DNA of 64,000 nt from a virus (IMGVR_UViG_3300007352_000013:1-64000); one strand, 5' to 3'; positions 9,186 through 53,345 are shown, numbered from the stretch's first letter. A program made the numbers and translations. Notes: generated by a model not told the origin, from the letters alone.

Positions 9186-9191
9186 AGTAAC

Positions 9192-9263: not shown

Positions 9264-9289
9264 TTTGTAATTTGAAAAGGAGTGTCAGA

Positions 9290-10241: not shown

Positions 10242-10460
10242 ATGAGGATTTGTAGAAAAACTACCAAAAAAGTAGAAGTTCGGATGCTTCAAGTTGGTGA
10301 CTGTTTTTTGTATGATGATGAGCTATACATTAAAATAGATGGAAGGTTTAGTGATAATTATGCTGTGTGCGCGATTTATCTAAAAAACGGCCATAAGAAT
10401 GGCTTTTCTAATGCTATTGAAGTAGAACCTGTTACAGTAGTTGCAACAATTGAAAATTAG
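10242..10460 (+). CDS. Small beta-rich paralog-family protein
   Basis: VRMLQVGDCFLYDDELYIKI...IYLKNG...VEPV. Confidence 0.7.
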   Translation: MRICRKTTKKVEVRMLQVGDCFLYDDELYIKIDGRFSDNYAVCAIYLKNGHKNGFSNAIEVEPVTVVATIEN

Positions 10461-10514
10461 GTAGCATCGACAAGGCTACTAACCCAAGCCCTCTTGGGTG
10501 ATAGAGGGCGCGGT

Positions 10515-10590
10515 GGGCCGGTAGCTCAGCCCGGCAGAGCGGCATCCTTATAAGTTGCGTCAGTCGCGGGTTCAAATCCCGCCCGGCCCA
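10515..10590 (+). tRNA. tRNA-Ile (anticodon UAU), no encoded CCA
   Basis: GGGCCGG/CCGGCCC acceptor, GCTC/GAGC D-stem, anticodon loop CT-TAT-AA, GCGGG-TTCAAAT-CCCGC T-arm. Confidence 0.9.
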
Positions 10591-11594: not shown

Positions 11595-12125
11595 ATGAAA
11601 CTACTTGTGTCTTCAAGGGTTGAGGTATCTGATTTAGTTAATTTACTTTCTAATTCTAATCCATTAGTTATTTCAATAACTGATCCTAAGTCAGATATTG
11701 TAAAATTTAATTTACGGGAATCAAATATTTTAAGACTTCAATTTCATGATCTTGAAAAGGATTATCCGGGAAATGAACCGGCAATAATCCTCTTTAAAAA
11801 AGAAACAGCAAAACAAATTAAGGATTTTCTATTTGATTCTTTATGTTTGGGAGGATCATCTATTGCAGCGATAAGACAAACCGTTAGACAAACTATACTG
11901 GTAGTTCATTGTGAAGCCGGTATTTCTAGAAGTGCAGGAGTAGCAGCAGCGATTTCTATGCATTTCAATAAGGATTGTTCTGAATTTTTTGAAAACGGCA
12001 AATATATACCGAATCGTTTAGTCTACAAAACTTTACTAGACGAATTAAATGGCCAAGACAATAATGTTCCAGTTGTTAAACTGCGTATTTGTGACGATTA
12101 CTTTGGTAAGTTTCCGGAGGATTAA
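11595..12125 (+). CDS. Tyrosine/dual-specificity phosphatase-like (CX5R) protein
   Basis: VVHCEAGISRSAGVA P-loop. Confidence 0.85.
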   Translation: MKLLVSSRVEVSDLVNLLSNSNPLVISITDPKSDIVKFNLRESNILRLQFHDLEKDYPGNEPAIILFKKETAKQIKDFLFDSLCLGGSSIAAIRQTVRQTILVVHCEAGISRSAGVAAAISMHFNKDCSEFFENGKYIPNRLVYKTLLDELNGQDNNVPVVKLRICDDYFGKFPED

Positions 12126-13484
12126 TAAATGATCCCAAGTAAAGAAACTAAACTATGGCATATTGACGCTGCAATAGAAGTCAAAAAATTATATGCACAA
12201 TACTGGATGGCACAGGCAACAACTGGTGTTTGTAAGAATCGTATTGTTTGTAGAACACGACCAAATGGTGAATCTTATAGAGTATCCGATGATGAGTTGG
12301 TTAAAGATACGCTAGATATAGCACTTAATCAGATTCAAGGAATAAATGAACTTATTGATGAACGTTTAAATTTAATGAATGGAGAATGAATATGTTAGGA
12401 AGATCCGTATTTTCGATGGTATTTGGTCTTGTTTGTGGTATTGCAAATTTTTTTATTAATGGCTTTGTGTCACAAAATTGTATAATTGGTTTATCCCGGA
12501 TATAACCGGGTTAAATGATATTTCATTTTGGTATTCGTGTGGCATATGTCAAATTATAGCTCTATGTGTCGGACAATATAGGAATACAGATAATAGTCAT
12601 ACTAAAAAAATAATGGATGCAATAGAAAACGGTGGTAAAGAATTTATTGAACAAATTTTGATGGTTTTTTCAAGATCTTTATTGGGTCCATTGGTTGTAT
12701 TATTTTTCGGATGGTGGATTCATTGTTATTGTAATTGATGAATTAATTGGAGATAAAAAGGATTCTGAAATGCAAAAAATTGATAAGATGGAAGCGCTCA
12801 GGATAATGTGCAGAACCACTAATAAGTGGGGTATGTATATTGGGATTGGTGACTGGTTGGATACTCCGAATTTTCTTGATGAGTTAGTTAAGGCAGCACC
12901 ATATCTTGACAATATTGAGGATTATCAAATCATTTCTGATGAAATGTGTTATCTCCTCTTTGATACAGAAGAAGAAATGGATAGAATATTCGAGATGACA
13001 GTTGGTGATGATGGACCAACTAGATTAAATAAGTATAATGGTCAAGTTCGCGTGTATGCTATCACCTGTGATAATAATGGTGAATTAATGAACACAAATA
13101 CATAAGGAAATTATATGACAATACAGCAATTTTTTGTATTGGGTTTTTTGATTGGTGCCGCCTTTGTTTTATTTAGGGATTTTTGTTGTTGTATATTCTG
13201 TATAAAAACACAAGTTTTTGTAATAAAAAATTATCTATGCTGTGGCGTTCTATTTGGAGGCATAGGTGTAATTCTTGGATTTTTATGGAGATTGCAAATA
13301 TAATGAAAATACGAATCAGTTTTAAAACACCCGATGCTGTTGATTATGCCATAGAACATCTCGATGAAAATGTACGTAATGAAATCAAAGAAGATTTAGC
13401 TACTTGGATTAAATATGGCGAATCTATTAAAATAGAATTCGATACAGACGAAAAAACAGCCACGGTTTTACCAGCGAGTTAAAT

Positions 13485-14411
13485 ATGAACGATATAATTA
13501 AAATTCATAATATAGTAGATGAATGCGAAGTTTCTTATCCTTATAAATCGCTCATCTTTCCGGGCGGTGAACCCCACGTTCAGGTAGATCCACAATATAT
13601 AGAAGGAAAGAATATATGGGTAGACGCAAGAATCTGTAGCGCCGATGGATTTATGACACTTTTATGTCTGCTTGACGCCATAAGTGAGTGTGGGCCGGAG
13701 AGGTTGGGATTATTTCTTCCTTACTTTCCTGGCGCTCGTCAAGATAGATACGAAAATGGAAGTGCGTTCTCCCTACAAATTTACGGTCGAGCATTAAGGC
13801 GTTATAGTCTGCATTCTATTTTGGTTCTTGATCCTCATTCAGAAATGTTAAAGGCCATTGTAGATGTTGATGCCTTAGAATCGCATACAGTAGCTTTACC
13901 ACTAGATTCAAAATATAGGGGAATTATAGCTCCGGATAATGGCGCTTTGAGTAGATGTGCAAAATTTGCCACAGCAGCAAAAATAGATTTGATATTTACG
14001 GCTAGAAAGGTAAGAAATCCAGAAACAGGAAAATTAAGTAACTTCTACATAAATATGGAAAATCGTAATGGCCGATATCTTATTGTGGATGATATCTGTG
14101 ACGGCGGTGGAACCTTCATTGGTCTAGCCGATGAAATTAAACGCCAAAGTCCAAATTGTATTCTAGACTTATGGGTTTCTCATGGAATATTTTCTAAAGG
14201 GTTTTATGAATTAGATAAAAGATTCGGAAAGATAATTACAACAGATTCTTTTCCAAGAGAACAACAACCGGGAGAATGGGTATACCATTCTTACACAGAC
14301 AGAAAATATTCTGGTTATGGTCCTATCCAAGATATACTAATAGAATATAGAACGCTTTGGTATCATGCGGCTCACTTTATGAAGGAAAGGCTTTCTTATG
14401 CACAAATCTGA
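13485..14411 (+). CDS. prs: Ribose-phosphate pyrophosphokinase-like protein (probable Adps of NARP1)
   Basis: FPGGE, PYFPGARQDR, DPHS, APDNGA, IVDDICDGGGTF motifs; next to a Nampt-like gene. Confidence 0.85.
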   Translation: MNDIIKIHNIVDECEVSYPYKSLIFPGGEPHVQVDPQYIEGKNIWVDARICSADGFMTLLCLLDAISECGPERLGLFLPYFPGARQDRYENGSAFSLQIYGRALRRYSLHSILVLDPHSEMLKAIVDVDALESHTVALPLDSKYRGIIAPDNGALSRCAKFATAAKIDLIFTARKVRNPETGKLSNFYINMENRNGRYLIVDDICDGGGTFIGLADEIKRQSPNCILDLWVSHGIFSKGFYELDKRFGKIITTDSFPREQQPGEWVYHSYTDRKYSGYGPIQDILIEYRTLWYHAAHFMKERLSYAQI

Positions 14412-24162: not shown

Positions 24163-24399
24163 ATGAATAAGGTTACTTTTGTTACGAACAGTGGTGAAGG
24201 TCTTCCTCGTACCGTAGAAATTCGTGACGATGTTCTCGTCTCCGAATTCCTTTCGGTAAATTTTGAAGGCGATCTTGACGATTATCAGTTCAGTATCCGT
24301 CGAGATGGTCAATCTCATACGGCAGACATGGATGAAGTTCTTCAGAACGGGGATCGTCTAGTGGCTGCACCTCGTCGTGTCAAGGGCGAGCTTAACTAA
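24163..24399 (+). CDS. Ubiquitin-like (beta-grasp) protein with C-terminal G-ELN extension
   Basis: 78 aa; ends LQNGDRLVAAPRRVKG-ELN; strong RBS GAAGGAG; first gene before E2/JAB/E1. Confidence 0.75.
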   Translation: MNKVTFVTNSGEGLPRTVEIRDDVLVSEFLSVNFEGDLDDYQFSIRRDGQSHTADMDEVLQNGDRLVAAPRRVKGELN

Positions 24400-24415
24400 T
24401 AAAAGATGGTTGAAT

Positions 24416-24446
24416 GGGGGGTGGGTTTGAATAAAGCCCATCCCCC
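24416..24446 (+). promoter_or_regulatory. GC-rich hairpin between the Ubl and E2 genes
   Basis: GGGGGGTGGGTTT-GAATA-AAGCCCATCCCCC; T-run only ~13 nt downstream. Confidence 0.6.
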
Positions 24447-24481
24447 AAATGCTGTAGATTTTTTTAATCTAACACAAATAG

Positions 24482-25618
24482 ATGGAGAAAGTCCATATGG
24501 ATAGTAAAAAAATAATAAAAATAGCTTCTATTATTCAAAATACTTTAAAAACAGGAGATGAACATTTAGTAACTTATAATTCAGGAAGACTTACTGGACT
24601 GAATAATAAAATCAAAGATCTCCATGCACAAATAAATAAATGTCTAGAAAATGATTTTGAAGGCGCAAGAAAAAGTATAATATTACAAATAAATACCTGT
24701 ATAACAAAAGCAGAAGATTTTCTAAAAGCAGCAAAATCAAATATAAATCAAGAAACATATGTTCCATCTATTGAAGATTTAATAAATGAAATTACAGCAG
24801 TTAAAAATTCTTTTCCATCTCTAGAATTTAGAAATGGAGAATTAATTATAACGTCAGATACAATTATTTTACAGGAAATAGATTTTGGAAAATTTAAAAT
24901 CAAAATAGACTTAGAAAATTTAAAAGAAAAACCAGATAGATTCCTAAAAATAGATGCGGTTAGTCCAAATTATTCTAGTGATGGTGAATATGTTCATCCT
25001 CATATAGATAATCATATGCTTTGTTGTGGAGAGGGTTATGATATCTTAATAGATGCAGCGAGACAAGGAAGGATTGAGGATCTTTTTAAACTAGTGCTCG
25101 CGACATTAAATACTTATAATGAAGGTTTTGCGTATTGTGAATTAGAAAATTGGGAAGGAAAACATTGTTCTTCTTGCGGCGATCAATACGATGAAGATGA
25201 GGCGTTTTATTGCACTAAATGTGATAGTAATTTATGTGGTAGTTGTTCGTATCGTTGTGAAAATTGTGATGAATATTTTTGTGAAGAACATGTAAGCACA
25301 CCGTGTAGTTGTTGCGAAAAAAAATACTGTGATTATTGTAGTGATAATCATACGTCTACATGTGAAAAGTGTGATAAAACATTCTGTGATGATTGTTCGG
25401 CAATTTGTAATGAATGCGAAAATCGTTTATGTCAAGATTGCCTTGCGATATGCGATCATTGCTCTAATGAATTTTGTGTGAAATGCCTAAAGTCTTGCGA
25501 AGAATGTAAAGAAAGTATTTGCCCAGGATGCAGCTACGAATGTAGTAATTGTAATAAAAAATATTGCGAAGATTGCTACGACGAAGAATCTTGTAATTTA
25601 AACAAGGTTAAAGCTTAA
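24482..25618 (+). CDS. E2/UBC-like domain protein with N-terminal helical region and C-terminal tandem CxxC zinc repeats
   Basis: YVHPHIDNHMLCCGEG resembles the E2 HPNI..C active site; about 17 CxxC/CxxH motifs follow. Confidence 0.7.
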   Translation: MEKVHMDSKKIIKIASIIQNTLKTGDEHLVTYNSGRLTGLNNKIKDLHAQINKCLENDFEGARKSIILQINTCITKAEDFLKAAKSNINQETYVPSIEDLINEITAVKNSFPSLEFRNGELIITSDTIILQEIDFGKFKIKIDLENLKEKPDRFLKIDAVSPNYSSDGEYVHPHIDNHMLCCGEGYDILIDAARQGRIEDLFKLVLATLNTYNEGFAYCELENWEGKHCSSCGDQYDEDEAFYCTKCDSNLCGSCSYRCENCDEYFCEEHVSTPCSCCEKKYCDYCSDNHTSTCEKCDKTFCDDCSAICNECENRLCQDCLAICDHCSNEFCVKCLKSCEECKESICPGCSYECSNCNKKYCEDCYDEESCNLNKVKA

Positions 25619-26578
25619 TTGGAGAAGGCTATGGAATTTTTGAAAAAATCAATGAATAGAAGTGGGGTACTAAGATTCACGCCATATGCTTGGGCAAAAC
25701 TCGTTTTTATGAGAGATGCTGGTGATACAGAGGTTGGTGGTTATGGAATCAATGAAACGGACGACCCACTTTTGATTACCGATTTCATTTTGGTAAAGCA
25801 AAATTGTAGTGGAGTTTCTGTTGATCTTGATGAACAAGATTCTTTGGCATTCGCAGAAGAAATGACAGATAAAGGTTTTAGTCCTTGGCAATATGGGACT
25901 TGGATACACACCCATCCGGGTAATTCGCCAAATCCAAGCGAAGCGGACGAAGATAATTTCAGAGATAATTTTTCTATAGCTGATTGCTCGATATTTTTTA
26001 TCTTGGCGAAAGGAGGACAAAACTATACGAGGATGCGATATAATGTGTCGCCGGGAATAGATGTTGATATTAAATCTATTATAGACTTTCATGTTCCGTT
26101 TAGAGCGAGTGATAAAGAGTCTTGGAAAAAGGAATATGACGAAAAAGTTAATGTTAGTAAATGTGTGTATACCGGAAATATGTTCAAGAAAGAAACTGAT
26201 TTACTAGAAAGAATTTCTAGTTCAAAAAAAGACAAATCTCTTTTTGAAAGAAAAGAAGAATATGATTTTCAAGACTGGTCAACGATGTCTACTAATGACC
26301 ATGATGAAGAAGAGGATGAAAGCGCCTTCGTATTTGAAGAGGGTGATTCAATCTTTTTCTATGTAGATGATGAAGAAGAATATTATGAATTCAAAAAAGA
26401 TCTAGAAAGATTTTACGATGAAAAAGGAAAAAGAATAAGACATCCTAAAAATGAATGGATGGAGATAATAGCATCGTTTTTATCAAAACAAGATAATAAT
26501 ATAGAAGACGTTTCTGAACAATTGGAAAAAGAAATGGAGAAAGAATATGCAGACATTATTGACGGACAGAGCAATTAG
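25619..26578 (+). CDS. JAB/JAMM metallopeptidase (deubiquitinase-like) with acidic C-terminal tail
   Basis: EVGGYG...WIHTHPGNSPNPSEAD = E..HxHx7Sx2D; alternative ATG at 25631. Confidence 0.88.
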   Translation: MEKAMEFLKKSMNRSGVLRFTPYAWAKLVFMRDAGDTEVGGYGINETDDPLLITDFILVKQNCSGVSVDLDEQDSLAFAEEMTDKGFSPWQYGTWIHTHPGNSPNPSEADEDNFRDNFSIADCSIFFILAKGGQNYTRMRYNVSPGIDVDIKSIIDFHVPFRASDKESWKKEYDEKVNVSKCVYTGNMFKKETDLLERISSSKKDKSLFERKEEYDFQDWSTMSTNDHDEEEDESAFVFEEGDSIFFYVDDEEEYYEFKKDLERFYDEKGKRIRHPKNEWMEIIASFLSKQDNNIEDVSEQLEKEMEKEYADIIDGQSN

Positions 26579-27206
26579 ACAAAGAGATTTGGTTCCAGAA
26601 GAAAAACTCAAAAATACAAAAGTAACTGTTGTTGGATGTGGTGCTGGTGGAAGACAAGTTAGCCTAACACTTGCAGAAATTGGTGTTCCAGATATACAAC
26701 TTATAGATTTTGATACAGTAGAAGTCGTAAATTTGGCTACGCAAGGCTTTTTTGAAAGTCAGTTGGGCAATTTTAAAGTTGATGCAGTTGCCGAAGTGTG
26801 TAAGCAAATAAATTCAGAAATTAAAATTAAAACAGTAAGAAGCAAATTTAGACCGAATATGTTTGATGGTGGAGTGATATTCTCTTGTGTAGATTCTATG
26901 TCTGGTAGAAAACAGATTTTTGAAGAAACAGATGGCCTTAGAGATCTTTTTATAGATAGCAGAACTGCCGCTGAATACTCAAGAATTTTTGTTGTGCATG
27001 ATGACGATAGCGCCGAACATTATAAGGAAAGTCTTTATACGGATGAAGAGGCTCATCAAGAGGGTTGTACGAGTAAGATGACAATTTATTCGGCAAAGGT
27101 TTCGGCTAATCTAAGAGTAGCACAATTCGTCAAGTGGTTGAGGGGTTGTGATTTAGATAAGGAAATTGAGATTAATCTTTTAACTAATGAAATGAGGGCT
27201 ATATGA
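26547..27206 (+). CDS. ThiF/MoeB-fold E1-like activating enzyme
   Basis: RAIRQRDL, VVGCGAGG, DFDTVEVVNLATQG, FSCVDS, IDSR, C-terminal EGCT Cys. Confidence 0.9.
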   Translation: MQTLLTDRAIRQRDLVPEEKLKNTKVTVVGCGAGGRQVSLTLAEIGVPDIQLIDFDTVEVVNLATQGFFESQLGNFKVDAVAEVCKQINSEIKIKTVRSKFRPNMFDGGVIFSCVDSMSGRKQIFEETDGLRDLFIDSRTAAEYSRIFVVHDDDSAEHYKESLYTDEEAHQEGCTSKMTIYSAKVSANLRVAQFVKWLRGCDLDKEIEINLLTNEMRAI

Positions 27207-29764: not shown

Positions 29765-31670
29765 AATTAGGAAAAATAATGTCGAATGATGTAGCTTTGT
29801 TTATTCATAGAGCGTTAATAAATTCTGGTAAAAGATCCGAATTAATACAGAAGTATAGTGGAACAAAATCTAATTGGCAATCAACAAGCGGTGTATTAAT
29901 TACATGTTCAGATTCAGAATTATTATTAGCCATTCTCAAAGAAGCTAAAATAAATTCATCTGCCCTATCGGATACTGTTTTTGATATAAAGAGTCTTAAT
30001 CAAGACGGAATTGGATTTAATAAAATTATTTACTGAGGTTATAATATGGGTAGTAAATTAAAAGAAATTACAGTATGTAAAATATCATATAAATGCCCCA
30101 AAACAAACAAACGGTGTTTTGAAATTTTTGACGCACATAAATGCATTAATAGTAATGCGCACGTTTATTCTGTTAACTGTTATGGAGGTCATGCTTCCTA
30201 TATTAAGATTTACAAATGCAAATCGTGTGGAAAGTTTCATGAGGCAGAATTACAATGAAGGTAAACTTTAAGTGCAAAGAATGTGGCTTTAATAAGATAG
30301 AAGAAGTTATGGAGGGTGTTAGAAAATATAGTATAATTTCACACGCAGAAATGACTGATACTAATTATGTAGGATTACAATATGGAGATTGTAACGACGA
30401 AGACGGCGAATTATTACATTATCAATGTGCAGGATGCGGTAATGAAATAGAGGGTTGCTGGAATCCAGAATCTCTATATAATTATCTTAAAAAAAATAAT
30501 ATGCTGGAGAAATAAATATGTCATATATAAGATGTACAACCAATCCTGAAAAACTATACTCATGGGATGATATAGACGGAAATATATACTTTAATTGGAC
30601 AGACAGAAGAGGAAAACATAAAAAAATATCTATAGACTCAAAAGTATTTAACCAATTCATGGTTGGACTCAAAATCGTTGATGGCTATGTTATGTGTGAA
30701 CCTTTAGTATATCAAAATATATCTATAAGAGAAATATTCTATAATGCAAGTAAAAATTGTATTTGCGAAAACCCTTTGGGAAATGGTAAACAAACAAAAG
30801 ATACGATTGAAATTTTAACATGTTTGCAAATAGGAAAAGAAAAATTATTGATGTACGATGTTACTTGGAATTATTTTTATCAAAATTATTTTTATTATAA
30901 ATCAGTAAAAGAATTATTATATGATCTTATAAAGATAATCTACCATAGAACTGGTAATTGGTTATTTGATTTGAACTATTCAATTAAGGAGAAAATTTTT
31001 GGTAAAAAAACATAAAATAATAGTAATTGTGGAGGGTGGTCTGATTCAAGATATTAGCAATATTCCAAAAGATATAGAGATAGAAGTTCATGACTATGAC
31101 TGCGATTCTGAACCAGATCCAAACAATAAGCATAATAATACCAGAGAAGATAGTGACGGTGCGTACTATTGGCAATCTACTTGGGAATAAAGAAAGGAAT
31201 TATATGGATCAAGTAAAAGAACAGGCATATAAAATAGAAATTGATGAAATTAATGGTAAATTTATTATTACAGCAAATATGGGAATAGCGGGTCCAATGG
31301 CAAATCAATTAAAACATACAAGTAATAAAAGAAAAGCCGCTTCAATTCTGCGAAAATTAGGTCATGACATTTCCGAAGCAGGAGATAGACTATATGGGAA
31401 CACATCAGATGACGAAAGAAAAACTTCTATCTAACTTAAGAGACATTCTACAAAAGCTAGATTGTGAATCAGATTCTCCTTTAACAAGAGAAAAATCATT
31501 AAAACACGATGATGAAATAGAAGTTCTTATCCAGCATATAAAAATTTTAGTGCAAGATCTTTTGCATGACAATCAATCTATGAGAAATGAGATGTTTGAT
31601 ATGCAAAAGCTTCTAGAGGGAAGGGATGATACGTACCCACCAGAAACATTTATATAATGGGAAACTTAGA

Positions 31671-33221
31671 ATGGAAAATTTTAAACAGAGCCTCCAAGAC
31701 TATATACTAAGCGGCCATGCCCTTCTGTATGTTTCTACGTATGAAAAAGAAAGATGCGCTAGCGACGTACATGATCATTGTAAAGAAATAAATAAAAGAA
31801 CGTTTGTATGGTCGGTAAGTGGAAATTGGACTGATATACTAGGAAATGTTATAGAAGGTCAAGGCAATTGTTTGCCACAATATGTCATTCCGGCAATATC
31901 AAAAATGCCAGAAAATTCTGTCTTTATTCTTAAGGAATTCTGGCCATATGTCCAAAATGGTGTGTTTAATGCGTGGGATATTGTTATTTCACAAATTTGT
32001 GAAATTAAAGAACAATTAAGCCATGATGGAAAAACCATTATATTTCTTGGACCAGAGTTCGAAATTCCGAATTCGTTAAGACATGACATAACTCTAATAG
32101 ATTTCTCTCTACCTGATAAAGAACAAATAAAAAATTCTATAATGTTTATATCAGAGGGAGTAGAAACTGGCAGTGATAAAAAATTCAAAATAGATGATTC
32201 TATTATGGATGATCTAATAGTAAGTTGTCAAGGTATGACAGCTTGTGAAATAACAGACAGAGTAGCATTAGCAATTAGAAAACACAAAACCATAAATACC
32301 GATGCAATTAAAACCATTTTAAGAGAAAAAGCTTCCGTTATTAAGTCATCTGGTCTTCTAACTTATATAGAACCACCGTCTGGTGGACTAAGTAATATAG
32401 GTGGATATGAAATACTTAAAAGAACAATCCTTTTAGATAAACCATGCTTCTCTGATGAAGCGAGAGAATTTGGAATCGAAAATCCGAAAGGAATACTTGA
32501 GGTAGGAATTCCCGGATGTGGCAAGACGGAAATAAGTAAATGTATTGCTTCCGAATTTAATAGACCACTTATAGGTTTGGATGTTGGATCTATAATGTCT
32601 TCTTATGTTGGTTCTTCTGAAAACAATATGAGGCAAGCCATAAAAGTTATAGAGAGTGTAGCGCCGTGCGTTTTACAACTAGACGAAATAGAGAAGGGAT
32701 TCGGCGGACAATCAGATCTTGATGGAGGATCATCTAAACGTGTGTTCGGAACCTTCCTCAAGTGGTTAAGCGAAAGAAAAAAGCCCGTTTATGTCGTAGC
32801 AACGGCAAATGATATTTCAGGACTACCACCCGAATTTTTCCGGTCTGGCAGGTTTGATTCAGTATTCTTTTTGGATCTTCCTAACGAACAAGAAAGAAAA
32901 ACTATACTAGAAATTCATCTTAATAGAAGAAACAGGGATGCCTCGTTATTTGATTTAAATTCATTATCAGAAATGACAAAGGATTATACTGGATCTGACT
33001 TAGAACAGATTGTTAAAGTTGCTCTAAAGATTGCTTTCTGTACAGATAAAAAATTAAAACAGGATCATTTAGAAATGGCAACACAATCGGTTATTCCTTT
33101 AGCTAAGATCGAACCGATTAGAATTCAATCTATTAGGGAATGGGGTCTGAAACATGCAAAACCAGCTAATAGTCAAATAGAAAAAGTGGCAGAAAAAAGG
33201 GGTAGAAAGGTCTCTGTATGA
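31671..33221 (+). CDS. AAA+ ATPase, Ycf46-like
   Basis: Walker A GIPGCGKT, Walker B LQLDEIEKG, ATANDISGLPPEFFRSGRFDSVFFLDLP; degenerate N-terminal domain. Confidence 0.88.
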   Translation: MENFKQSLQDYILSGHALLYVSTYEKERCASDVHDHCKEINKRTFVWSVSGNWTDILGNVIEGQGNCLPQYVIPAISKMPENSVFILKEFWPYVQNGVFNAWDIVISQICEIKEQLSHDGKTIIFLGPEFEIPNSLRHDITLIDFSLPDKEQIKNSIMFISEGVETGSDKKFKIDDSIMDDLIVSCQGMTACEITDRVALAIRKHKTINTDAIKTILREKASVIKSSGLLTYIEPPSGGLSNIGGYEILKRTILLDKPCFSDEAREFGIENPKGILEVGIPGCGKTEISKCIASEFNRPLIGLDVGSIMSSYVGSSENNMRQAIKVIESVAPCVLQLDEIEKGFGGQSDLDGGSSKRVFGTFLKWLSERKKPVYVVATANDISGLPPEFFRSGRFDSVFFLDLPNEQERKTILEIHLNRRNRDASLFDLNSLSEMTKDYTGSDLEQIVKVALKIAFCTDKKLKQDHLEMATQSVIPLAKIEPIRIQSIREWGLKHAKPANSQIEKVAEKRGRKVSV

Positions 33222-33485
33222 TTTTTGAATATAAATATAGCGTAGACAATGATTGTTATAAATTTACCTATAATTGCGAATTAAAATCTGAATTCCACAT
33301 TCCACATCTAAATGTATTGGCGCAAAAATGCGCTGAACATTATTTTAATAATTCTGATTCAGAATATCGTGAATGGCCAAAGGTATTTACTATATATAAT
33401 TCCGAGGGGGCTGAAGTTGGAAGGTTTGAAGTTGAAATGGAATTTGTCCCAAATTTTTATGCTTATGAGATAAAGGAAAATAAAC

Positions 33486-34448
33486 ATGGATAATAGTGAG
33501 ACCATTAATTTATTTGATGTAGGCTGTCTCGTATCCCTCAAGATAGGTGCGTGGTCCGGACGACGAATGATTTCGCGTTCCGATCTAGTAAGTGTAGGAA
33601 TTGATCCATCTGCACTTCCTACAGAATTAGTAAATTATGGTAGAAAACTTCTTGTTTCAAAATCCGAAATTCAAGCCATCACCAAAACAGAACAAAGAGC
33701 AAGATATTATCTGACTCAGTATTCTGTTCCTTTCGGAATAGCTAATGCATTTTTTATTCCAAATAAATTAATACCAGATGTAGAACATAACTTAAAAGAA
33801 TACAAAAAAGAATTCTTTCAAACGGTAGATAGTTTTATAGTTAGATTTAATGATCTAAAGCAACAAGTAAAAGATAAACACCCAGAATTTTTCGAAAAAT
33901 GTCTTAAAAGATTTTATCCAGAAACACCAGAATCGTTGCGGTCACGCTTCTATTTTGACTGGCATCTCTTTAAGATTAGCGGTATAAATTCAATTGAAAA
34001 TACAACATCAGAAGAAATAAATGAAAAGAATAAAATTATCAAAGAAAAAATGCAAAAAGAAGCGAACCTATTCGTTTCAGAATACGTAGAAGGAATGCGA
34101 TCAGAAGTAATTCGGTTCTGTGATTTGATCAAGGCCAGGATTAACGGAACTCCATACGGAGAAGAATCCGAAGCCAAGAAACTCTCTCCTAAAACGCTTA
34201 CGTCATTTCGTAAATATATTGAAAAATTTAAAATGCTTAATATATTTGGCGACACCGAAATTGATACATTATTAAATCAATTTAAAGAACAATTTCTTGA
34301 TGCAGAATTTAATGGAAAAACATTAGAGAGTGGCGCTTTACAACAAGCTATTTTAAGTTCAACTTCTGTTATCAGGAAAGCGGCCTCTATGGAAAATGAA
34401 GCTACGAGTCAATTCATAAAAAGTCTGAAAAGAAAGGTCGTCATATGA
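33486..34448 (+). CDS. Conserved helical hypothetical protein (DUF3150-like)
   Basis: LKIGAWSGRR, GRKLL, FFIPN, FDWHLFKI pattern; near the AAA ATPase. Confidence 0.45.
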   Translation: MDNSETINLFDVGCLVSLKIGAWSGRRMISRSDLVSVGIDPSALPTELVNYGRKLLVSKSEIQAITKTEQRARYYLTQYSVPFGIANAFFIPNKLIPDVEHNLKEYKKEFFQTVDSFIVRFNDLKQQVKDKHPEFFEKCLKRFYPETPESLRSRFYFDWHLFKISGINSIENTTSEEINEKNKIIKEKMQKEANLFVSEYVEGMRSEVIRFCDLIKARINGTPYGEESEAKKLSPKTLTSFRKYIEKFKMLNIFGDTEIDTLLNQFKEQFLDAEFNGKTLESGALQQAILSSTSVIRKAASMENEATSQFIKSLKRKVVI

Positions 34449-35318
34449 GAATTGAAAAGACAGTAGAGTTTATTGATATGCCACATGACGCACAACAAGA
34501 ATGTTCCCAAGAAGCACACAACTATTCATACATCAGAGTTTATTTAAAGGGTCATAATGATTATTATCCAAAAACAATAAAATGGCTTTTAGAAAATGGT
34601 GCATGTTTAGAAGATAAGTCTGTATTAGTTTTAATTTCTTGGTAGAGGATTACATCGGAATGCGCCTGGAACTAACAGAAAGGATTTAAAATGAGAACTG
34701 GATGGAATATTAATACTATATTAGAATTTAAAAAAATAAATAAATGCAATGAATGTTTTGATTTAATAATAACATATTGCAGTGCACATAATTCAGACTC
34801 AAAAATGCAAATACATATTCCATCTATAAATAATAAAGATCTATCTAACATAATAGAAGAAATATATAGAATAATGGGAGAATAAATTATGAATTGGTGT
34901 ACCACAAAAGAATTAATTGAACAATTCGATGATTATTATGAAGTATTAAATAGAAAAGAAACTCAACAATCTTTAAAAGAATTTGTATTAAATAAAGAAA
35001 ATCCTCTAAAAGAAAGATTTAGAGTTTGGGAAGAATACTGTAAAAAAATAGATGATCCTTGGATTATCCATAGTGGGGAGTACGGGATTATAGGAGAAAT
35101 GATTGATAAATGTTACCCTTGTGAATATGACAGACATAGAGAATATAATTATGAAGTTTTTCTATCTTGGATAGTAGACGCTAATGAAGATGAATATGAA
35201 AGTGAATTATGGAAAGAAACAATGAAAAATACCGAACTCCCATCGGTTGATCAATTTAAAGAAATGTTAATTCAAACTAATTTTGGTAGCTTTAATATGG
35301 ATTGGTAAGGAGGAATAA

Positions 35319-35576
35319 ATGAAATTGAATTTAAGAGATAAATCCAAATTAGTAACAATAGGATCATTAATGCCCGGAGAATGCTTCAAATATTGGCCAA
35401 ATCCCAAAACTTGCCCAGAAACATATTGTGTATGCATTAAGACCGATGGAAGATTTTGTTTAACGGATTGTAGAGATTTTTATCCATCAAGATATGTAGT
35501 ATTAACTACGGGTGAAGAGAATGGTTCTAAAAATGGAACTTTAGTTGAACCGTTAGATTTAACGGCTGGAGATTAA
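35319..35576 (+). CDS. Small beta-rich paralog-family protein
   Basis: VTIGSLMPGECFKY...CIKTDGRF...LTTG...VEPL. Confidence 0.65.
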   Translation: MKLNLRDKSKLVTIGSLMPGECFKYWPNPKTCPETYCVCIKTDGRFCLTDCRDFYPSRYVVLTTGEENGSKNGTLVEPLDLTAGD

Positions 35577-35578
35577 TA

Positions 35579-35995
35579 ATGTCTAGTTACTGTAATGTTG
35601 AAACGCAATTTAAGAACCAAGAAGCATTAACCTTGGCTTTAATTGAAACCGGAAAATGGTCTAAAGATCAAATAGAGGTTCATTCTGAACCAAAAAACCT
35701 TTATGGTTATCATAATGATATTAGATCTGATAAAGCACATATAATAATTAGAAGAAAATATATAGGTGGATCATCTAATGATATTGGTTTTCTTAAAACA
35801 GAAGAAGGAACATATACAGCTATTATATCAGAATTCGATAAACGATCTATGGGATATAATGATAAATGGTTGGCTTCCCTGAAAGGGAACTATGCGTATC
35901 ATACTATAAAACAGCAACAAGAAAGCAGGGGTCGTATGGTAACTCGTGAACATATAGGCAATAAACAAAGAATATCTATAAAAGGATATAGATAA
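35579..35995 (+). CDS. DUF1257 (Ycf35-like) protein
   Basis: MSSYCNVETQFKNQEALTLAL, LYGY, AHIIIRR, NDIGF motifs. Confidence 0.75.
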   Translation: MSSYCNVETQFKNQEALTLALIETGKWSKDQIEVHSEPKNLYGYHNDIRSDKAHIIIRRKYIGGSSNDIGFLKTEEGTYTAIISEFDKRSMGYNDKWLASLKGNYAYHTIKQQQESRGRMVTREHIGNKQRISIKGYR

Positions 35996-36275
35996 TGAGA
36001 TTGCAAATTAAAAATTGGTCATTAGAAATAATGTATGAAAAAATTTCTACATTAAAAATGATTTTTATATTATTGGGTCACGATAAATGGAGAAGCAAAA
36101 AAACTTATACTTTTTTTAGGCATAATGAATATACAAAAAATAGTCCTCTTAAAGAATACAAAAGCGTAAAAATATTAAGATGGCCAAAATGGTTTAATTT
36201 ATCATCTTTTTATATAGATTTAAATAAACATAATATTCCATTCATGTTTCATTTCATATTTGATAAGGGGGATTA

Positions 36276-37253
36276 ATGTTTTACCAATCATATGGTTTCT
36301 CTGATGTAGCAATAAAACAAAAGATGAACGTTTGTTCATCTAGGCAAGACGTTAAAATAGAGAGTGAGATAATTAGGGGAATAATTAGACCGATTCCCAT
36401 TATAGCTTCAAATATGTCTACTGTAACCAACCCCGAATTTTGCATAAAATTGTACAAATGCGGTGCGATGGGAGTTTTACATAGGGCTTTCGAAGATAAT
36501 TCTGAATATATAAGAGAGGTAACAAGAATTGCAAAAGAAATACCAATAGTATCCGTCTCTGTAGGGGTTAAAGATAGTGATTATTTGTTATTAGATCAAT
36601 TAGTTAGGGCTGGTGCCAACTGCATAGTCGTAGATATAGCAAATGGATTTTGTGAGAATGTATTACAAATATGTAAACACATAAGAACTCTATATCCATT
36701 AGTTAGGATTGTTGCAGGAAATACAGTTAATCCTAATGCGATAGAATTTTTTGGTGATAATATTGACGCATTAAAATGTGGTATAGCATCCGGGTTTGTA
36801 TGTGAAACCAAAAACACTAGCGGTTGTTATAAACCTCAGTTTAGCGCCGTTTATGATATGAAAGAAAAGGCTCATAAATACGGAATGCCAATTATATCTG
36901 ATGGTGGAATTCGCGAGCCTGCCGATTTTTCCAAAAGTATTGGCGCTGGAGCATCATCAGTAATGGCCGGATCAATCTTCGCTAGATGTCCAGAAAGTGC
37001 TGGAGAAATTGTAGAAATAGATGGTCTTAAAAAGAAGATATATTCGGGCATGAGTAGCAGAAAAGTTCAAGAAAAATGGAGGGGTAAAGTACATAATAAT
37101 TGTCCAGAAGGAAAAACCGTTTTTCTCGATGTTGGAGAATCTGTTGAAAATTTATTAGCTAGATATGCTGGCGCTTTACGGTCTGGCATTTCATATGCTG
37201 GATTCAATAATATAGAAGATTTTAAGAATGAATGTGAATTTATTTTGATTTGA
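36276..37253 (+). CDS. IMP dehydrogenase / GMP reductase family protein (no CBS domains)
   Basis: PIIASNMSTV, VVDIANG, KCGIASGFVCET, IISDGGIR, VMAGS, YSGMSS, PEGK, LRSGISYAG. Confidence 0.88.
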   Translation: MFYQSYGFSDVAIKQKMNVCSSRQDVKIESEIIRGIIRPIPIIASNMSTVTNPEFCIKLYKCGAMGVLHRAFEDNSEYIREVTRIAKEIPIVSVSVGVKDSDYLLLDQLVRAGANCIVVDIANGFCENVLQICKHIRTLYPLVRIVAGNTVNPNAIEFFGDNIDALKCGIASGFVCETKNTSGCYKPQFSAVYDMKEKAHKYGMPIISDGGIREPADFSKSIGAGASSVMAGSIFARCPESAGEIVEIDGLKKKIYSGMSSRKVQEKWRGKVHNNCPEGKTVFLDVGESVENLLARYAGALRSGISYAGFNNIEDFKNECEFILI

Positions 37254-37263
37254 AAGGATTAAT

Positions 37264-37482
37264 ATGAAAATAGAAATTTTATCAGAAAAAGAAGCCAGAC
37301 GTATTGGCTCTATTAATTTTGGTTCATGTGTTGCTTTAGATGGTTCATATTATATTATATCGGAACTTGCAATAGATACAAATAACGTATATATCATTGA
37401 TTTATCTTCTGGCTTAAAAAGAATTATATCACTTGATACTAAAGTACGTGTAATGGATAATGCCAAAATTGTTATTCCATAA
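37264..37482 (+). CDS. Small beta-rich paralog-family protein
   Basis: IGSINFGSCVALDGSYYIIS...DLSSG...DTKVRVMDNAKI. Confidence 0.7.
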   Translation: MKIEILSEKEARRIGSINFGSCVALDGSYYIISELAIDTNNVYIIDLSSGLKRIISLDTKVRVMDNAKIVIP

Positions 37483-37496
37483 TAACGAGAACAAAA

Positions 37497-37832
37497 ATGT
37501 TAAATAAAAATATGGTATTTTGTTTTACAGGAAAGGGGCCAATGCCCCGTAGCCAAATGGAGGCTATGGCTATTAATGCTGGCGCATCAGTTACAAAATC
37601 TGTAAACAACAGAACAACTATATTGGTTATAATGGATATGGATAGCCAATCAACAAAAGCAAGAAAAGCTCGCGAGAATGGAATAGATTTGATTGGCCCA
37701 GAAACATTTATTTCAATGTGCAATTCTCATATAAAAAATAATGTGTCTTCTGAAAACAAAGTTAAGATTGAAAAGAAGATTATTGCAGAACAAGTTAAAA
37801 AACAACCTCTAATAAGGAAAATAATTCTATGA
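37497..37832 (+). CDS. Stand-alone BRCT domain protein (LigA C-terminus-like)
   Basis: FCFTGK...GASVTKSVNNRTTILV...STKARKARENGIDLI. Confidence 0.82.
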   Translation: MLNKNMVFCFTGKGPMPRSQMEAMAINAGASVTKSVNNRTTILVIMDMDSQSTKARKARENGIDLIGPETFISMCNSHIKNNVSSENKVKIEKKIIAEQVKKQPLIRKIIL

Positions 37833-38019
37833 AGAAAAGAATGGCTGGCAAAAGAATAAATGGAAAATGGACACCCGAACCTTGCTCGTCTTGCCAAAAA
37901 ATCCCCGCCTTTGTAAAAGTGGGTGGAATATTCTGTAAAAAGTGCGGAAAAGGGAAAGCCGATGTTGGATCAGTTAAATCACCAATTCCAGAACCGTTTG
38001 TAGAATTGTTCCCTGTATA

Positions 38020-38292
38020 ATGGAGATCTATATGATTCCGTGTATCGAAATTGACGAAAATGGAAATATTTCTACTTTATATAATGACTTTGTAGACCTT
38101 TACGAAGTCGGTAGAGTCCATAATGTTCGTAAAGCCAGCTATGTCGAATTTGCAGAAGAAAAACAAGAATGGCAAATAATTTCTGCTAAAACTAGCGAAG
38201 TTTTAGCTTCTGACAAAAATAGAGAAAAAGCTATTGACAAGGAAATTGAGATGTTCCAGCCCGGTGGGGTTATGTATGACAACAATAATTAG
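38020..38292 (+). CDS. Conserved small protein likely linked to the AAA/DUF1257/DUF2997 module
   Basis: IEIDENGNISTLYNDFVDL...RKASYVEF...W...REKAIDKEI. Confidence 0.45.
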   Translation: MEIYMIPCIEIDENGNISTLYNDFVDLYEVGRVHNVRKASYVEFAEEKQEWQIISAKTSEVLASDKNREKAIDKEIEMFQPGGVMYDNNN

Positions 38293-39568
38293 TATATTAT
38301 TTTTATTATCGGTATCATGTTTTGCCGCTTCATTCGTATTCGGCGGGAAATACAGGCTTTTTGAACCCATTCTCATGGTATTAGGGGTCTTTCTTTTGTT
38401 AGCCATGTGTATAGGTGGTATTCTTTATTATTGGAATTAAAATTATGAAAACAACTGATGGATTTAAAGTTAAAAAGGAAAATACCTATTTTATAGTTAA
38501 ACCCTTTGAAATAATTGAAACTAAGTGCGAAACTGTGCATTATAGTAAGTTATTCGGAAATTATGTTTGTTATTTTCATGATTCTTATGACTCATTTTCT
38601 CCAGTAATGTTGAAAGGAATGGTATATAAATCCAAAGAAAAAGCGATAGAGAGACTTAAGAAAATACTAAAAAATAATATAAAAAGTCATGAAAAATCTA
38701 TAAAAGAATCCAAAGAAAAATTGGAGGCATTAAATGCATGAATCTAATTCTTACGCAAAAATAGATAAAGAAAAATTAATTAGTTTTTGTAAAGATTTTA
38801 TAGAGATAATAGAAAAACATCAAAAAGATAAAAATGAAGAAATTTTATCCGATTTTATCGAAAAATATAATAAAAGATGGTATAGACGTAAAAAGAATAT
38901 AACTAGAGATCAAGCACATAAAAAAATAATAACTAGTAGTATGTATTCGTGGATGTATTATCCTTGTCATGACTATGATAATCAAAAGAAATTGGCAGAA
39001 AAAATATTGAATTTATGTAATTGTTCTATTGAAGATACTGTTAATGTTACAGCAGAAGATTTGAATTTTATTCATTATAAAGAAAATGATTAATGACAAC
39101 TAAAGAAAAAATGGATGGTTATTTTTCGATGTTCAATTGTCATGTAAATAATGCTTTTGATAAAGCATCAATTTCTTTTATTGAAAAATTTGGAGCAATA
39201 AGATATTGCGAAACTATTGCTAAATATTGGAATCAAGGTATTATGTCTATTTTTCATGATCCTCCAACAGAAGAAACAAAGTTCTTTGTTGACACAATAA
39301 ATGGAGTAGTAAATGAAAGATAAAATAATATATGGTGCAGCCATTAATCTTGTTGGAATTTGGGGTCCAAAAAAGATGGTATGGCATAATAGGTGTAAAC
39401 AATATTATGATAATTCTGGAAATTTTAGTATTGACAAATTGGGTCTAAATGAAAAAGATGGCATAACAGAATTTTCTTCAACAAATAAAAAAGAAGTAGA
39501 GTTGTGGGTTGAAGGTGCAAAGGCAGCGTTTAAAAGAATAAATATACTTACCAAATAGGAGAAAGTAA

Positions 39569-39751
39569 ATGCCTAAATTTAAAATTAAGTGGCACGGCGT
39601 ACAAAATGTGAATGGTGAAGTAATTGTGCAAGCAAAAGACGAAGAAGAAGCTATCGAAGTGGTTCAAGACGACCCGGAAGCAGGAGAACCAGAAATTGAA
39701 TGTTTTGGTCTAGACGATATAGAAGTAGATGAATGCGAAGAAATTAAGTAG
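39569..39751 (+). CDS. Acidic microprotein (DpnD/PcfM-like pattern)
   Basis: KFKIKW...VIVQAKDEEEAIEVV; 19 D/E in 60 aa. Confidence 0.6.
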   Translation: MPKFKIKWHGVQNVNGEVIVQAKDEEEAIEVVQDDPEAGEPEIECFGLDDIEVDECEEIK

Positions 39752-39796
39752 AAATTTATAACCAACTTATCAAACTCTCTACTATAGGGGTGCTAA

Positions 39797-39976
39797 ATGA
39801 AAAGATTTAGGATTGAATGGTCAGCAACAATACATGGAACAACTCATGTTCAAGCCGAAAATGAAGACGAAGTATATGATATGACTGATGATTTAGATAC
39901 ATCAGAAATAAATGATACAAAAGATATTTGTATAGATTACGTAGAAGAACTAGAAGTAGAAGAAGGAGATGCTTAA
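39797..39976 (+). CDS. Acidic microprotein, tandem paralog (below the ORF-track cutoff)
   Basis: Read by eye: MKRFRIEWSATIHGTTHVQAENEDEVYD...; 19 D/E in 59 aa. Confidence 0.6.
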   Translation: MKRFRIEWSATIHGTTHVQAENEDEVYDMTDDLDTSEINDTKDICIDYVEELEVEEGDA

Positions 39977-40290
39977 ATGGCCCTATTAACATCAAAATAT
40001 AAAGTTATGTTTTATCATAAAACTCTTGCTACAGAAGATCTATATGATATTCATGGAATCCAAGGTCTTCCGTGGGAAGAATCTAGAAGATGTACTATAG
40101 CAAAATTATTTGATATTAAAACTAATGAACAATGCAACGAATATATTGCAATATGCAATCCATTGGATAATTTTAGTAAATCGTTAGGAAGAAAATCTTC
40201 CTTACAAGGTTTGCTTTGTACAATAACAAATAAAAAAGAACGTAAAGAAATATGGAATGAATACTATAAACAATTCCCAAGGAGAAATAC

Positions 40291-40488
40291 ATGCTATCAA
40301 AAGAAATAATTATTGAGATTGATGAAAATGGTAATTGTTCGCTAGACGGCAAAGGTTTTATTGGTCCAGAATGTGAAAAGGCTATGGCAGAAATAGAATC
40401 GGTTCTTGGTAGAACTGTTAATAAAGTTCATAAGCCAGAATATTCTATGATTAATAGAACAAACGTTAGGAATAAAGAAAGGGCTTAA
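40291..40488 (+). CDS. DUF2997 family protein
   Basis: IIIEIDENGNCSLDGKGFIGPECEKAMAEIESVLG...KPEY. Confidence 0.75.
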   Translation: MLSKEIIIEIDENGNCSLDGKGFIGPECEKAMAEIESVLGRTVNKVHKPEYSMINRTNVRNKERA

Positions 40489-51453: not shown

Positions 51454-52863
51454 ATGAATAAATTAAAAAATATTTTCAATGAAAATGGTTTGGTTATAGA
51501 TAAATCATTTGCAACTATTTCTAACAATTTTAGAAAACTCCCCAATTTCGTTTTCGATTATTTGTCATCTCAATTAATTCATGATTCAAATCCCGAAATT
51601 GGTATATCAAAAATAAATAAAATAATAGAAGAAAATTTTGTAGACTCCGATAAAAAAGAATTAGTTAAAAGTAGAATTAAGGAATTGGGAAGATATTCTT
51701 TTTTGGGAAATATTAGTTGCAGATTTGATCAAAATAAAAATGAATATTTTGCATCTGTAAATGTTTTGGAAGATAATAATATTAGAATAAGTCCTGATGT
51801 TTTAGAAAAATATGGAGATATACTATTAACAACAGGGTGTTATGGAAGTTTATTAATTGCTTTTGAACCATTTACATTAACTAAAAAGAAGAATTATCCA
51901 TTTATTATAATAGATTTTGTTCCATTTCAAATAATAGATATAAATATAGATTCATATATAGAAAAAAGAAAGAATTTTTCGACAGATGAATGGATAGACA
52001 TTATAATAAACAGTATCGGATTTAATCCAAATCTTCTAAATAGAGAACAAAAATTATTGTACATATGCAGACTAACTCCTTTTGTAGAATCTAATCTTAA
52101 TACGATAGAATTGGGAGGAACAGAAACTGCTAAGACACATATATACAGAAATCTTAGCCAATATGGTATATTGCTTTCAGGTTCTAATCCATCTATGGCA
52201 AGTCTATTTTATAATAAACTAAGAAGAACGGTCGGTATCCTTTGTAAAAAGGATTGCGTTATATTTGACGAGATATCTGGGACTAAATTCAACGATGAAG
52301 AATTGATAAATTCTCTTAAAGACTTTATGAATAGTGGAAAATTCTCAAGGGATAAAGTAGAATTAACTTCTGGATGTTCCGTTGTATTTATAGGAAATAT
52401 TGATACCGACACAAATAAACAAGAAGTAAAAAATTATTATCATCACCTATTTGTTCCTCTACCAGTTAAAATAAGGAATGATCGCGCCTTTCTAGATAGA
52501 ATTCATGCATTCTTACCCGGATGGAAACTACCAAGAATCTCTGTGTCTAGCCTATCTTCAGATTATGGATTCATGGCAGATTACATAAGTGAAATATTTC
52601 ATAGATTTAGAGATAAAGATTATTCTAGTATTATTAAATCTAAGATTAAATTTGATAACTCAAGTTTTAGAAATCAACAAGCTGTAACCAAACTTTGTTC
52701 TGCTCTCATTAAAATAATTTATCCAGATAAAAATATGACTGATGATGAATTAAAAGAAATTCTAAATATTTCTATTGACTTGAGGCAAAGGGTTGTTGAT
52801 CAATTAGGAATCATAGCACCTAGTGAATTCAAGGATATCAAAATAAAATGTTCAATAATTTAA
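51454..52863 (+). CDS. brxL: BrxL-like MCM/AAA+ ATPase lacking the Lon protease domain
   Basis: PFVESNLNTIELGGTETAKTHIY, SLFYN, VIFDEIS, LKDFMNSGKFSR, AFLDRIHAFLPGW, GFMADYISE, LRQRV..QL. Confidence 0.78.
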   Translation: MNKLKNIFNENGLVIDKSFATISNNFRKLPNFVFDYLSSQLIHDSNPEIGISKINKIIEENFVDSDKKELVKSRIKELGRYSFLGNISCRFDQNKNEYFASVNVLEDNNIRISPDVLEKYGDILLTTGCYGSLLIAFEPFTLTKKKNYPFIIIDFVPFQIIDINIDSYIEKRKNFSTDEWIDIIINSIGFNPNLLNREQKLLYICRLTPFVESNLNTIELGGTETAKTHIYRNLSQYGILLSGSNPSMASLFYNKLRRTVGILCKKDCVIFDEISGTKFNDEELINSLKDFMNSGKFSRDKVELTSGCSVVFIGNIDTDTNKQEVKNYYHHLFVPLPVKIRNDRAFLDRIHAFLPGWKLPRISVSSLSSDYGFMADYISEIFHRFRDKDYSSIIKSKIKFDNSSFRNQQAVTKLCSALIKIIYPDKNMTDDELKEILNISIDLRQRVVDQLGIIAPSEFKDIKIKCSII

Positions 52864-53345
52864 ATGATATCAATAAGGCTATAATGGATTTTAGATTACA
52901 CAATGGAAGATATCCAAACGTAATCTTTATATCTAAAGAAAATAAAGCCAGTTTTTTTAAAATTATTGATAATCATTATTACTATTCCAACCCATCTCAA
53001 GGTTTTAATGAAATGGAATTACTTGGATTAAAGGTAAAATTTACACAATCTTTAGATGGATTAGATTATGTAGCAGAATTTGATAAATCATCTTCTCTTG
53101 AAAATTTTAATTCAGAATATTTAAATTATCCATCACTACCAGAATATATGAAAAAAATATTTGTTGAAAGACCATATAATGGAGAGAAAACAAAAATACC
53201 AGAGAAACCAAAACAAAAGAAAAAAAGGAGAATAATTTTATGAAAAACAAAACATCTAATGTAATTTGTATCATTCTTTCACTTATAACCATTGGTTGTA
53301 TAAGTGGCATTGTTGTTACAACTCCCGGTTGTAAAAATATAATAA

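Follow-up and report, generated by a model that had tools for sequence, protein, structure and literature searches.

The closest described relatives of the system analyzed here are the Ycf46 ATPase (Slr0374 / Synpcc7942_0417) and the Ycf35 (DUF1257) and DUF2997 proteins of cyanobacteria and red-lineage plastids. According to a gene-cluster survey, DUF2997, ycf35 and fed7 constitute a cyanobacterial gene cluster (PMC4284462), and a further report describes the joint loss of ycf35 and ycf46 in red-algal plastids, which points to a functional link (PMC5940233). Here, a mobile-element form of this set is described from IMGVR_UViG_3300007352_000013, an uncultured large phage of which the stretch 1-64000 was analyzed (the window: the first 64 kb of a 129-kb IMG/VR record with an estimated completeness of 77%). 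The window encodes an ATPase colinear with the cyanobacterial protein and members of the same partner families, but unlike the cyanobacterial set, the phage and plasmid form adds a DUF3150 protein, a protein of 90 amino acids (aa), a C-terminal tail and adjacency of the partner genes. Judged by sequence comparison, these five genes most likely form one functional unit, and we give a probability of about 0.5 to the reading that this unit is a self-contained, Cdc48-like remodeling machine of mobile elements, addressed by C-terminal tails and working among replication and recombination functions.

All five genes lie on the plus strand at the positions given in a first-pass annotation of the window, which had been made from the sequence alone. 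Four were recognized by Pfam, where every family call was accepted at a score above the gathering cut-off, and the fifth by a profile built from its relatives. The Ycf46-like AAA+ ATPase (516 aa, 31671..33221) scores 90.1 bits against AAA (PF00004; cut-off 21.2), with an AAA lid in addition, in the reading frame 31626/31671-33221. An upstream ATG at 31626 would yield 531 aa; the start at 31671 is likely because the relatives measure 514-527 aa. The next member, the DUF3150 protein (320 aa, 33486..34448), reaches 73.5 bits against PF11348 (cut-off 24.9) over profile positions 5-214 of 257, and is followed by the DUF1257 protein of the Ycf35 family (138 aa, 35579..35995; PF06868, 40.6 bits versus 22.2). 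The fifth member (90 aa, 38020..38292) belongs to no Pfam family and corresponds to phrog_38408, and the DUF2997 protein (65 aa, 40291..40488) scores 33.7 bits against PF11211 (cut-off 24.1). The ATPase matches phrog_8638 over its full length, every module member is filed under ‘unknown function’ in PHROGs, and megablast of the region against cultured phages gave no match.

The arrangement of these genes in other mobile elements argues for a single unit. On the Manganitrophus plasmid CP114559, the genes abut in one direction in the order AAA-DUF1257-DUF2997-DUF3150-84-aa gene, the last being of the 90-aa family (p90), and on the Verrucomicrobia contig L131, DUF3150, DUF1257, DUF2997, the fifth gene and AAA are contained inside 5 kb. 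In Aeromonas phage HJ05, Rhizobium phage L338C and Pseudomonas phage SM1, the ATPase gene is followed by one or two unassigned genes, DUF1257, DUF2997 and the fifth gene, and the module sits directly upstream of a RepO-like initiator and DnaB (also PolA in L338C). The fifth-member profile matches the gene 3' of DUF2997 in HJ05 (E 4e-24) and L338C (E 5e-21), as well as the 84-aa gene of the Manganitrophus plasmid, genes in L131 and the provirus L046, and gp031 of SM1. In compact modules the DUF1257 and DUF2997 genes overlap or abut. Closer to the window, the order AAA, DUF3150, DUF1257, fifth gene, DUF2997 is conserved in 18 IMG/VR relatives (ATPase 33-68% identical) with varying intervening genes, and in more than 20 uncultured relatives counted overall; DUF3150 lies directly downstream of the ATPase in all close relatives. 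A wider scan added 69 viral loci; DUF1257 and/or DUF2997 adjoin the ATPase in most of these, and DUF3150 and the fifth gene are present in many. Among 80 bacterial (and one archaeal-labeled) loci with full-length ATPase homologues, DUF2997 was adjacent on the same strand in 19 and DUF1257 in 16. Across phages and plasmids, the neighbors of the module comprise RepO-like initiator, DnaB, PolA, ParB-like, RecA-like and bet/exo genes.

Within the window, where nearly all genes are on the plus strand and the G+C content is ~30%, the module is interleaved with other open reading frames (ORFs), as the first-pass annotation had described. They include GMP reductase, a BRCT-domain protein, DUF7020 and small ORFs, and relatives lack most of them. 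Since the order stays constant while the inserts differ, and since two relatives (L010 and L014) have an almost compact module, the dispersal in the window is attributed to insertions such as those of the GMP reductase and BRCT genes. The former (36276..37253 (+), between DUF1257 and the fifth member; Pfam IMPDH, NCBIfam GMP reductase) is found solely in the phage family of the window, and synteny tables show it absent from the module elsewhere. Directly upstream of the ATPase, two small genes (114 and 97 aa, 31090..31657 (+)) are likewise kept in synteny in this phage family only. The 97-aa protein (31364-31657) belongs to a small family with two or three copies per locus in relatives.

The cyanobacterial proteins identified by tblastn (Nostoc, Fischerella, Pseudanabaena, Oscillatoria and others) align colinearly with ATPase residues 3-492 at 33-35% identity, and the label Ycf46 therefore fits, by sequence rather than by annotated name. 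Full-length homologues occur in cyanobacteria and in numerous other phyla. One protein that is 50% identical over its full length (P0111) is labeled as coming from a Candidatus Heimdallarchaeota metagenome-assembled genome (4.9-Mb contig), a label that may point to a provirus or to host range or may stem from a binning error. In two uncultured phages, the Ycf46-like ATPase genes carry inteins (Intein_splicing, LAGLIDADG; L226:9944-13048 and L228:2018-4093).

Pfam detects a single AAA domain in the ATPase. The protein comprises a degenerate D1-like domain (~residues 1-226) and an active classical-clade AAA domain with lid (~230-500), and the earlier description of a degenerate first and an intact second AAA domain was thus upheld. 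The first domain has the strand-helix layout of the AAA fold and lacks the P-loop, or Walker A motif, as its strand-to-helix turn is without GxxGxGK[ST]; in the second, GxxGxGKT, DExx, a YVG pore loop, TAN (sensor-1) and the RxGR arginines are invariant in all 15 aligned relatives. The best sequence match of the C-terminal half in the PDB is p97 D2 (E 1e-53). An AlphaFold 2 (AF2) model with a predicted local distance difference test score (pLDDT) of 82.3 superposes residues 2-512 on p97 210-775, that is, on D1 and D2 together (Z 27.6, root-mean-square deviation 6.5 Å, 473 residues), and gives Z 25.9 over 263 residues against D2 alone. Cdc48, p97 and VAT, the type II classical AAA+ proteins, are thus the best sequence and structure matches and share the D2-type pore loop and arginine fingers. 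Unlike them, the phage ATPase lacks a D1 Walker A, UBX or Ufd1/Npl4-type cofactors and the N domain (double-psi barrel/beta-clam; residue 2 of the model already pairs with p97 residue 210), and it ends in a different C-terminal motif. It scores 110 bits against the Cdc48 subfamily model (NCBIfam TIGR01243), for which the cut-off is 802.65, and its NCBIfam matches to CDC48, PAN, FtsH and IteA are partial and far under their cut-offs. The ATPase is therefore a member of the classical AAA clade and not Cdc48 proper, given the missing N domain, dead D1 and sub-threshold score. Going by sequence and model, it should nonetheless be Cdc48-like in its working, as a stacked double ring with one active tier. 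Of the Cdc48/p97-like unfoldase with cofactors that had been proposed at first pass, the fold, the classical AAA clade and DUF1257/DUF2997 as habitual neighbors in many bacteria and mobile elements all hold. A resemblance to IetAS/SgiAT (PADLOC IetA, NCBIfam IteA; E 5e-25 to 7e-29) is confined to partial matches over the AAA domain, far under the cut-offs, and the phage module has no subtilisin-like partner and otherwise different genes.

A short C-terminal tail of the form R-[KR]-[VI]-x-[LIV] connects several of these proteins. It ends the ATPase (..GRKVSV; RKVSV at 33204..33218 (+), behind a variable linker), the DUF3150 protein (..KRKVVI; RKVVI at 34431-34445) and the BRCT-domain protein inserted within the module (..IRKIIL; tail RKIIL; 111 aa, 37497..37832 (+), Pfam BRCT). 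Only 5 of the 189 plus-strand ORFs in the window end in [KR][KR][VIL]x[VILM], the others being 2428-2718 (96 aa) and 52848-53243 (131 aa), the gene after a BrxL-like ATPase. This BrxL-like protein (51454-52863) has BrxL_N and BrxL_ATPase domains (365 bits), with the Lon protease domain absent. In relatives, the tails are retained behind variable linkers, as RK[VI][ST][LV](N) on the ATPase, KR[KR][VI][VI][LI] on DUF3150 and VR[RK]I[EQK]L on the BRCT protein, and in HJ05 and L338C the products of the unassigned genes behind the ATPase end in RNRKLKL and ARRAVKL, respectively. Module-type DUF3150 proteins from very different lineages bear the tail; it is absent from the DUF3150 of IncA/C plasmids, which lies beside bet, a lambda-type exonuclease gene (exo), a vWA protein and a different AAA protein, with no Ycf46-like ATPase. 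DUF3150 is a backbone gene in 779 conjugative plasmids, mostly IncA/C-type (e.g., L026, IncA plasmid NZ_CP034084.1, 65902-67179).

Bacterial loci with at least 2.5 kb on either side of the ATPase were used to compare tail and gene neighborhood. The tail was present on 8 of 13 ATPases with adjacent DUF1257/DUF2997 and on 0 of 38 without (Fisher 2e-6), against a background rate at ORF ends of 8%; a typical bacterial tail reads ..GERKLEL. Taken together, the tail is most likely a short peptide through which its bearers dock on, or are recognized by, a common receptor, as far as sequence patterns can indicate. In minimal bacterial modules only the ATPase carries it, which makes the DUF1257-DUF2997 pair the simplest receptor. 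C-terminal peptides related to unfoldases include those of HslU and PAN and the MuA-type ClpX signal. As in HslUV and PAN/Mpa-20S, the phage-type ATPase has a peptide at its extreme C-terminus, whose presence tracks small partner genes; unlike in those systems, no peptidase partner was found for the phage ATPase, and the motif is basic-hydrophobic, not HbYX.

Among the partner proteins, DUF1257 has a Ser at position 2 that is invariant in 13 aligned members from phages, a plasmid and bacteria, all of which match DUF1257; the window protein begins MSS. The start of Ycf35 is reported as ‘MSH’ (PMC13060386). From the alignment, it is possible that Ser2 is a functional N-terminal residue after Met removal. 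The DUF2997 alignment contains an invariant G..G..C motif. Sequence searches with DUF1257, DUF2997 and DUF3150 found no solved structural relative, and ESM Atlas searches with DUF3150 and DUF1257 returned their own families alone, chiefly viral. An AF2 model of DUF3150 (pLDDT 79) combines a small sheet with long helices and a bundle at the C-terminus. Several candidate assignments were considered. The 208-aa (HJ05) and 212-aa (L338C) genes after the ATPase could not be accepted as diverged DUF3150 (hhalign 0.06%, no Pfam match), the tail being their only common feature. Catdawg gp95 is at most a weak DUF3150 candidate (hhalign 0.46%, no Pfam match), with a weak Foldseek match to the related phage Dylan (E 0.07). 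DUF1257 was also considered as the phage proteasome homologue PPH (PMC8665760), and gave no PDB or Pfam signal, with no PF00227 match in the record.

Upstream of the module, a cassette encoding a ubiquitin-like protein (Ubl), an E2 with Cys-rich repeats, a JAB protein and a ThiF-type E1 occupies 24163..27206 (+) (Pfam Prok-JAB and ThiF). Its E1 gene terminates at 27206, leaving 4.4 kb to the ATPase, in line with the nearness of the two sets noted earlier, and in most members of the window's family a spacing of 4-7 kb separates the upstream cassette from the ATPase. With its E1, E2-like, JAB and Ubl proteins, and a ParB-like gene following in the L018 family, the cassette resembles CBASS Cap2/Cap3, Bil/Bub-type and PRTRC systems. 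Membership of PRTRC, CBASS and Bil was rejected, as PRTRC_ThiF reached 34.1 bits versus 144.75, Cap3 20 versus 200 and PADLOC E1-E2/JAB partial matches; the NCBIfam PRTRC models gave no match for the E2, JAB and 128-aa proteins. To our knowledge, no CBASS, Bil/Bub or PRTRC system has been described with a Ycf46-type module. The Ubl family (24163-24399 and relatives) ends in P-x-K-[VI]-[EDKQ]-G plus 1-4 residues, with or without the module, and the K-[VI]-[ED] of this end resembles the module tail, perhaps by chance.

Module and cassette were found within 10 kb of each other in at least three arrangements. Besides that of the window's family, the L018/L019/L022/L062 family (ATPase 33-34% identical) has the order Ubl, E2, JAB, E1, two genes, ParB-like, AAA, RecA-like, DUF2997, one gene, NrdG-like and DUF1257, and L201 and L202 are arranged in a manner akin to it. 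In L018 itself (3492-13912), the ParB-like, RecA-like and NrdG-like activase genes stand within the module and the Ubl ends ..KVAGGI. The tightest linkage known is that of the provirus L046 (474-10645, high G+C), where a large serine recombinase is followed by DUF1257, DUF2997, a 209-aa gene, AAA, a weak DUF3150, the fifth gene, Ubl, E2, JAB and E1 in one contiguous, co-directional block, so that the clusters adjoining Ubl-E2-JAB-ThiF genes mentioned in the first-pass annotation do exist. Mapped on the trees, the linked state implies three or more changes for the ATPase and no fewer than two to three for E1, where unlinked lineages are interspersed. As only 57 E1 loci and ~77 ATPase loci were found among the 2.9 million IMG/VR contigs, repeated proximity of two such rare sets is unlikely to have arisen by chance.

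Conversely, each set also occurs alone. ThiF/E1 is absent from the whole contigs behind L011, L014, L021 and L013 (86%, 84%, 100% (G003) and 96% (G004) complete, respectively), and no E1 is present in the complete genomes of HJ05, L338C and Catdawg. Outside the linked families, 35 viral contigs with the cassette were compared, and 34 of these lack DUF1257, including 13 with a completeness of 90% or more. In bacteria, no E1, JAB or Ubl gene occurs within 10 kb at any of the 80 ATPase loci; a search with a single JAB protein as query found no loci, and an E1-based scan of metagenomes yielded families already recovered or short contigs. Given this two-way absence, what the module does at its core cannot hinge on tagging by Ubl, and the cassette in turn can do without the module. 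They are separate units that were brought together more than once, not a single system, and their repeated placement suggests either synergy or a shared ‘early’ compartment of the genome.

These distributions bear directly on the first-pass proposal of a tag-and-extract system, in which the ATPase and its partners would recognize and unfold or extract phage-Ubl conjugates made by E1 and E2, with JAB recycling the tag, as Cdc48 does with ubiquitin. The proximity of the two sets in the window's family, L018/L019/L022/L062 and L201/L202, their contiguity in L046 and the repeated origin of the linked state on both trees, given the rarity of both sets, are what such a mechanism would lead one to expect. 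Shared descent and the clustering of accessory genes in an early region could, however, account for part of this linkage. Moreover, the module does without E1 in four close relatives, HJ05, L338C and Catdawg, the cassette mostly does without DUF1257, bacterial loci give 0 of 80, no ubiquitin-binding domain was detected in any module protein, and the ATPase lacks the Cdc48 N domain. Tag-and-extract is thus not supported as a general mechanism, since co-occurrence, on which the first-pass annotation had staked its proposal, is absent in most lineages in both directions, and as an account of the window it is only a tentative candidate. A narrower version, in which Ubl conjugates are handed over to the ATPase facultatively in the window's family, is possible, though we would not lean on it. 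The neighborhood co-occurrence called for at first pass was therefore borne out for linkage within 10 kb in some lineages, but module and cassette are each found alone elsewhere. Overall, what the first-pass annotation observed is confirmed, and its interpretation is partly supported.

Three further explanations concern the module itself. DUF1257, with an N-terminal Ser exposed by Met removal, could form the peptidase ring of an ATP-dependent protease on which the ATPase docks by its C-terminal tails, in the way HslU docks on HslV and PAN on the 20S proteasome. Such a protease would make sense of Ser2 in 13 diverse proteins, of the Ycf35 start and of the co-variation of the ATPase tail with DUF1257/DUF2997 adjacency, and small proteasome homologues of ~140 aa, for which no AAA+ partner is known, have been described from phages (PMC8665760). 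Searches with the DUF1257 profile, however, gave neither a proteasome nor an HslV chain in the PDB, and no Pfam peptidase family even at E 10; its alignment does not keep an Asp or Lys throughout, as an Ntn-type triad of Thr/Ser1, Asp17 and Lys33 would call for, and the record contains no PF00227 match. On sequence grounds, the protease is very unlikely. A receptor outside the module is unlikely as well, if not to the same extent: here the tail would address a host or phage factor such as a DNA sliding clamp or host ClpX, and its bearers would share a place or fate rather than a complex with DUF1257/DUF2997. The MuA-type C-terminal signal of ClpX is indeed basic and then hydrophobic, the tail also occurs on the BRCT protein, the 131-aa protein after the BrxL-like ATPase and the 96-aa protein, and the neighbors are DNA-metabolism genes. 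Yet the record, 77% complete, yielded no clamp gene, the bacterial clamp-binding consensus has Gln and aromatic residues that the tail motif lacks, and the bacterial ATPase tail tracks DUF1257/DUF2997 in cis, not DNA genes. Finally, the genes might no longer cooperate in the window phage, their order being a relic of an ancestral operon under break-up by insertions. The spread of the module over 9 kb with at least 15 other ORFs between its genes would fit, but all five genes are intact and keep their family-defining residues in the window and in at least 15 relatives at 33-70% identity, and their order is kept despite differing inserts; we consider a relic extremely improbable.

Several points weigh against a self-contained, tail-addressed machine. 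The same dispersal over 9 kb means that co-expression of the module genes in the window is assumed. The tail pattern was set after inspection of the data, its bacterial carriers are possibly kin, and the tail could address a host factor instead. In the cyanobacterial loci that were fetched, the ATPase has no tail and does not adjoin DUF1257/DUF2997; the conserved cyanobacterial cluster of Ycf46, DUF1257 and DUF2997 mentioned in the first-pass annotation consequently stands for the published DUF2997-ycf35 cluster (with fed7), but not for the ATPase. A fold search of the PDB with the DUF3150 model returned generic helical bundles (Z up to 9.1), and for the N-terminal part Cas2-like sheets at about Z 7. 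Cyanobacterial ycf46 is described only as lying in a strongly stress-induced operon, affecting CO2 use and reportedly interacting with KaiC (PMC7496141, PMC13683863).

If the five genes do form a Cdc48-like remodeling machine, it would probably work as follows. The ATPase, which has no protease domain, would assemble into a hexamer acting as a protein unfoldase or remodeler, with a structural, nucleotide-free first ring and an active second ring threading substrate via the YVG pore loop. The DUF1257-DUF2997 pair, whose genes are usually translationally coupled, would receive the tails and so deliver the cofactors or clients that bear them to the ring. The unit would probably remodel or dismantle a protein complex early in infection, its targets being putative. 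The Ubl cassette would be a separate unit that may supply substrates and is not required. A more specific version treats the tails as an address code, with DUF1257-DUF2997 binding the hexamer as well as the tails of DUF3150, BRCT and other clients, and with the machine processing Ubl conjugates wherever the cassette is present; we regard this version as doubtful. 

Full-text search, which covers literature outside subscription journals, found no description of the module in phages or plasmids in the text it could reach. Ycf46, Ycf35 and DUF2997 are conserved in plastids, in cyanobacteria and across many bacterial phyla, and no molecular function has been assigned to any of them; the core set, enlarged by two genes, now appears as a common portable unit of phages and plasmids. 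Its presence in cultured Pseudomonas, Aeromonas and Rhizobium phages makes bench work feasible, and the tracking of partner genes by the tail provides a concrete interaction to test. The cassette, as a recurrent yet optional neighbor, offers a natural experiment on whether an unfoldase of bacterial viruses acts on Ubl conjugates. Should the address code prove true, the module would represent a viral counterpart, in bacterial hosts, of the Cdc48-ubiquitin pathway, and would give a first molecular handle on the Ycf46 and Ycf35 proteins of plastids and cyanobacteria.

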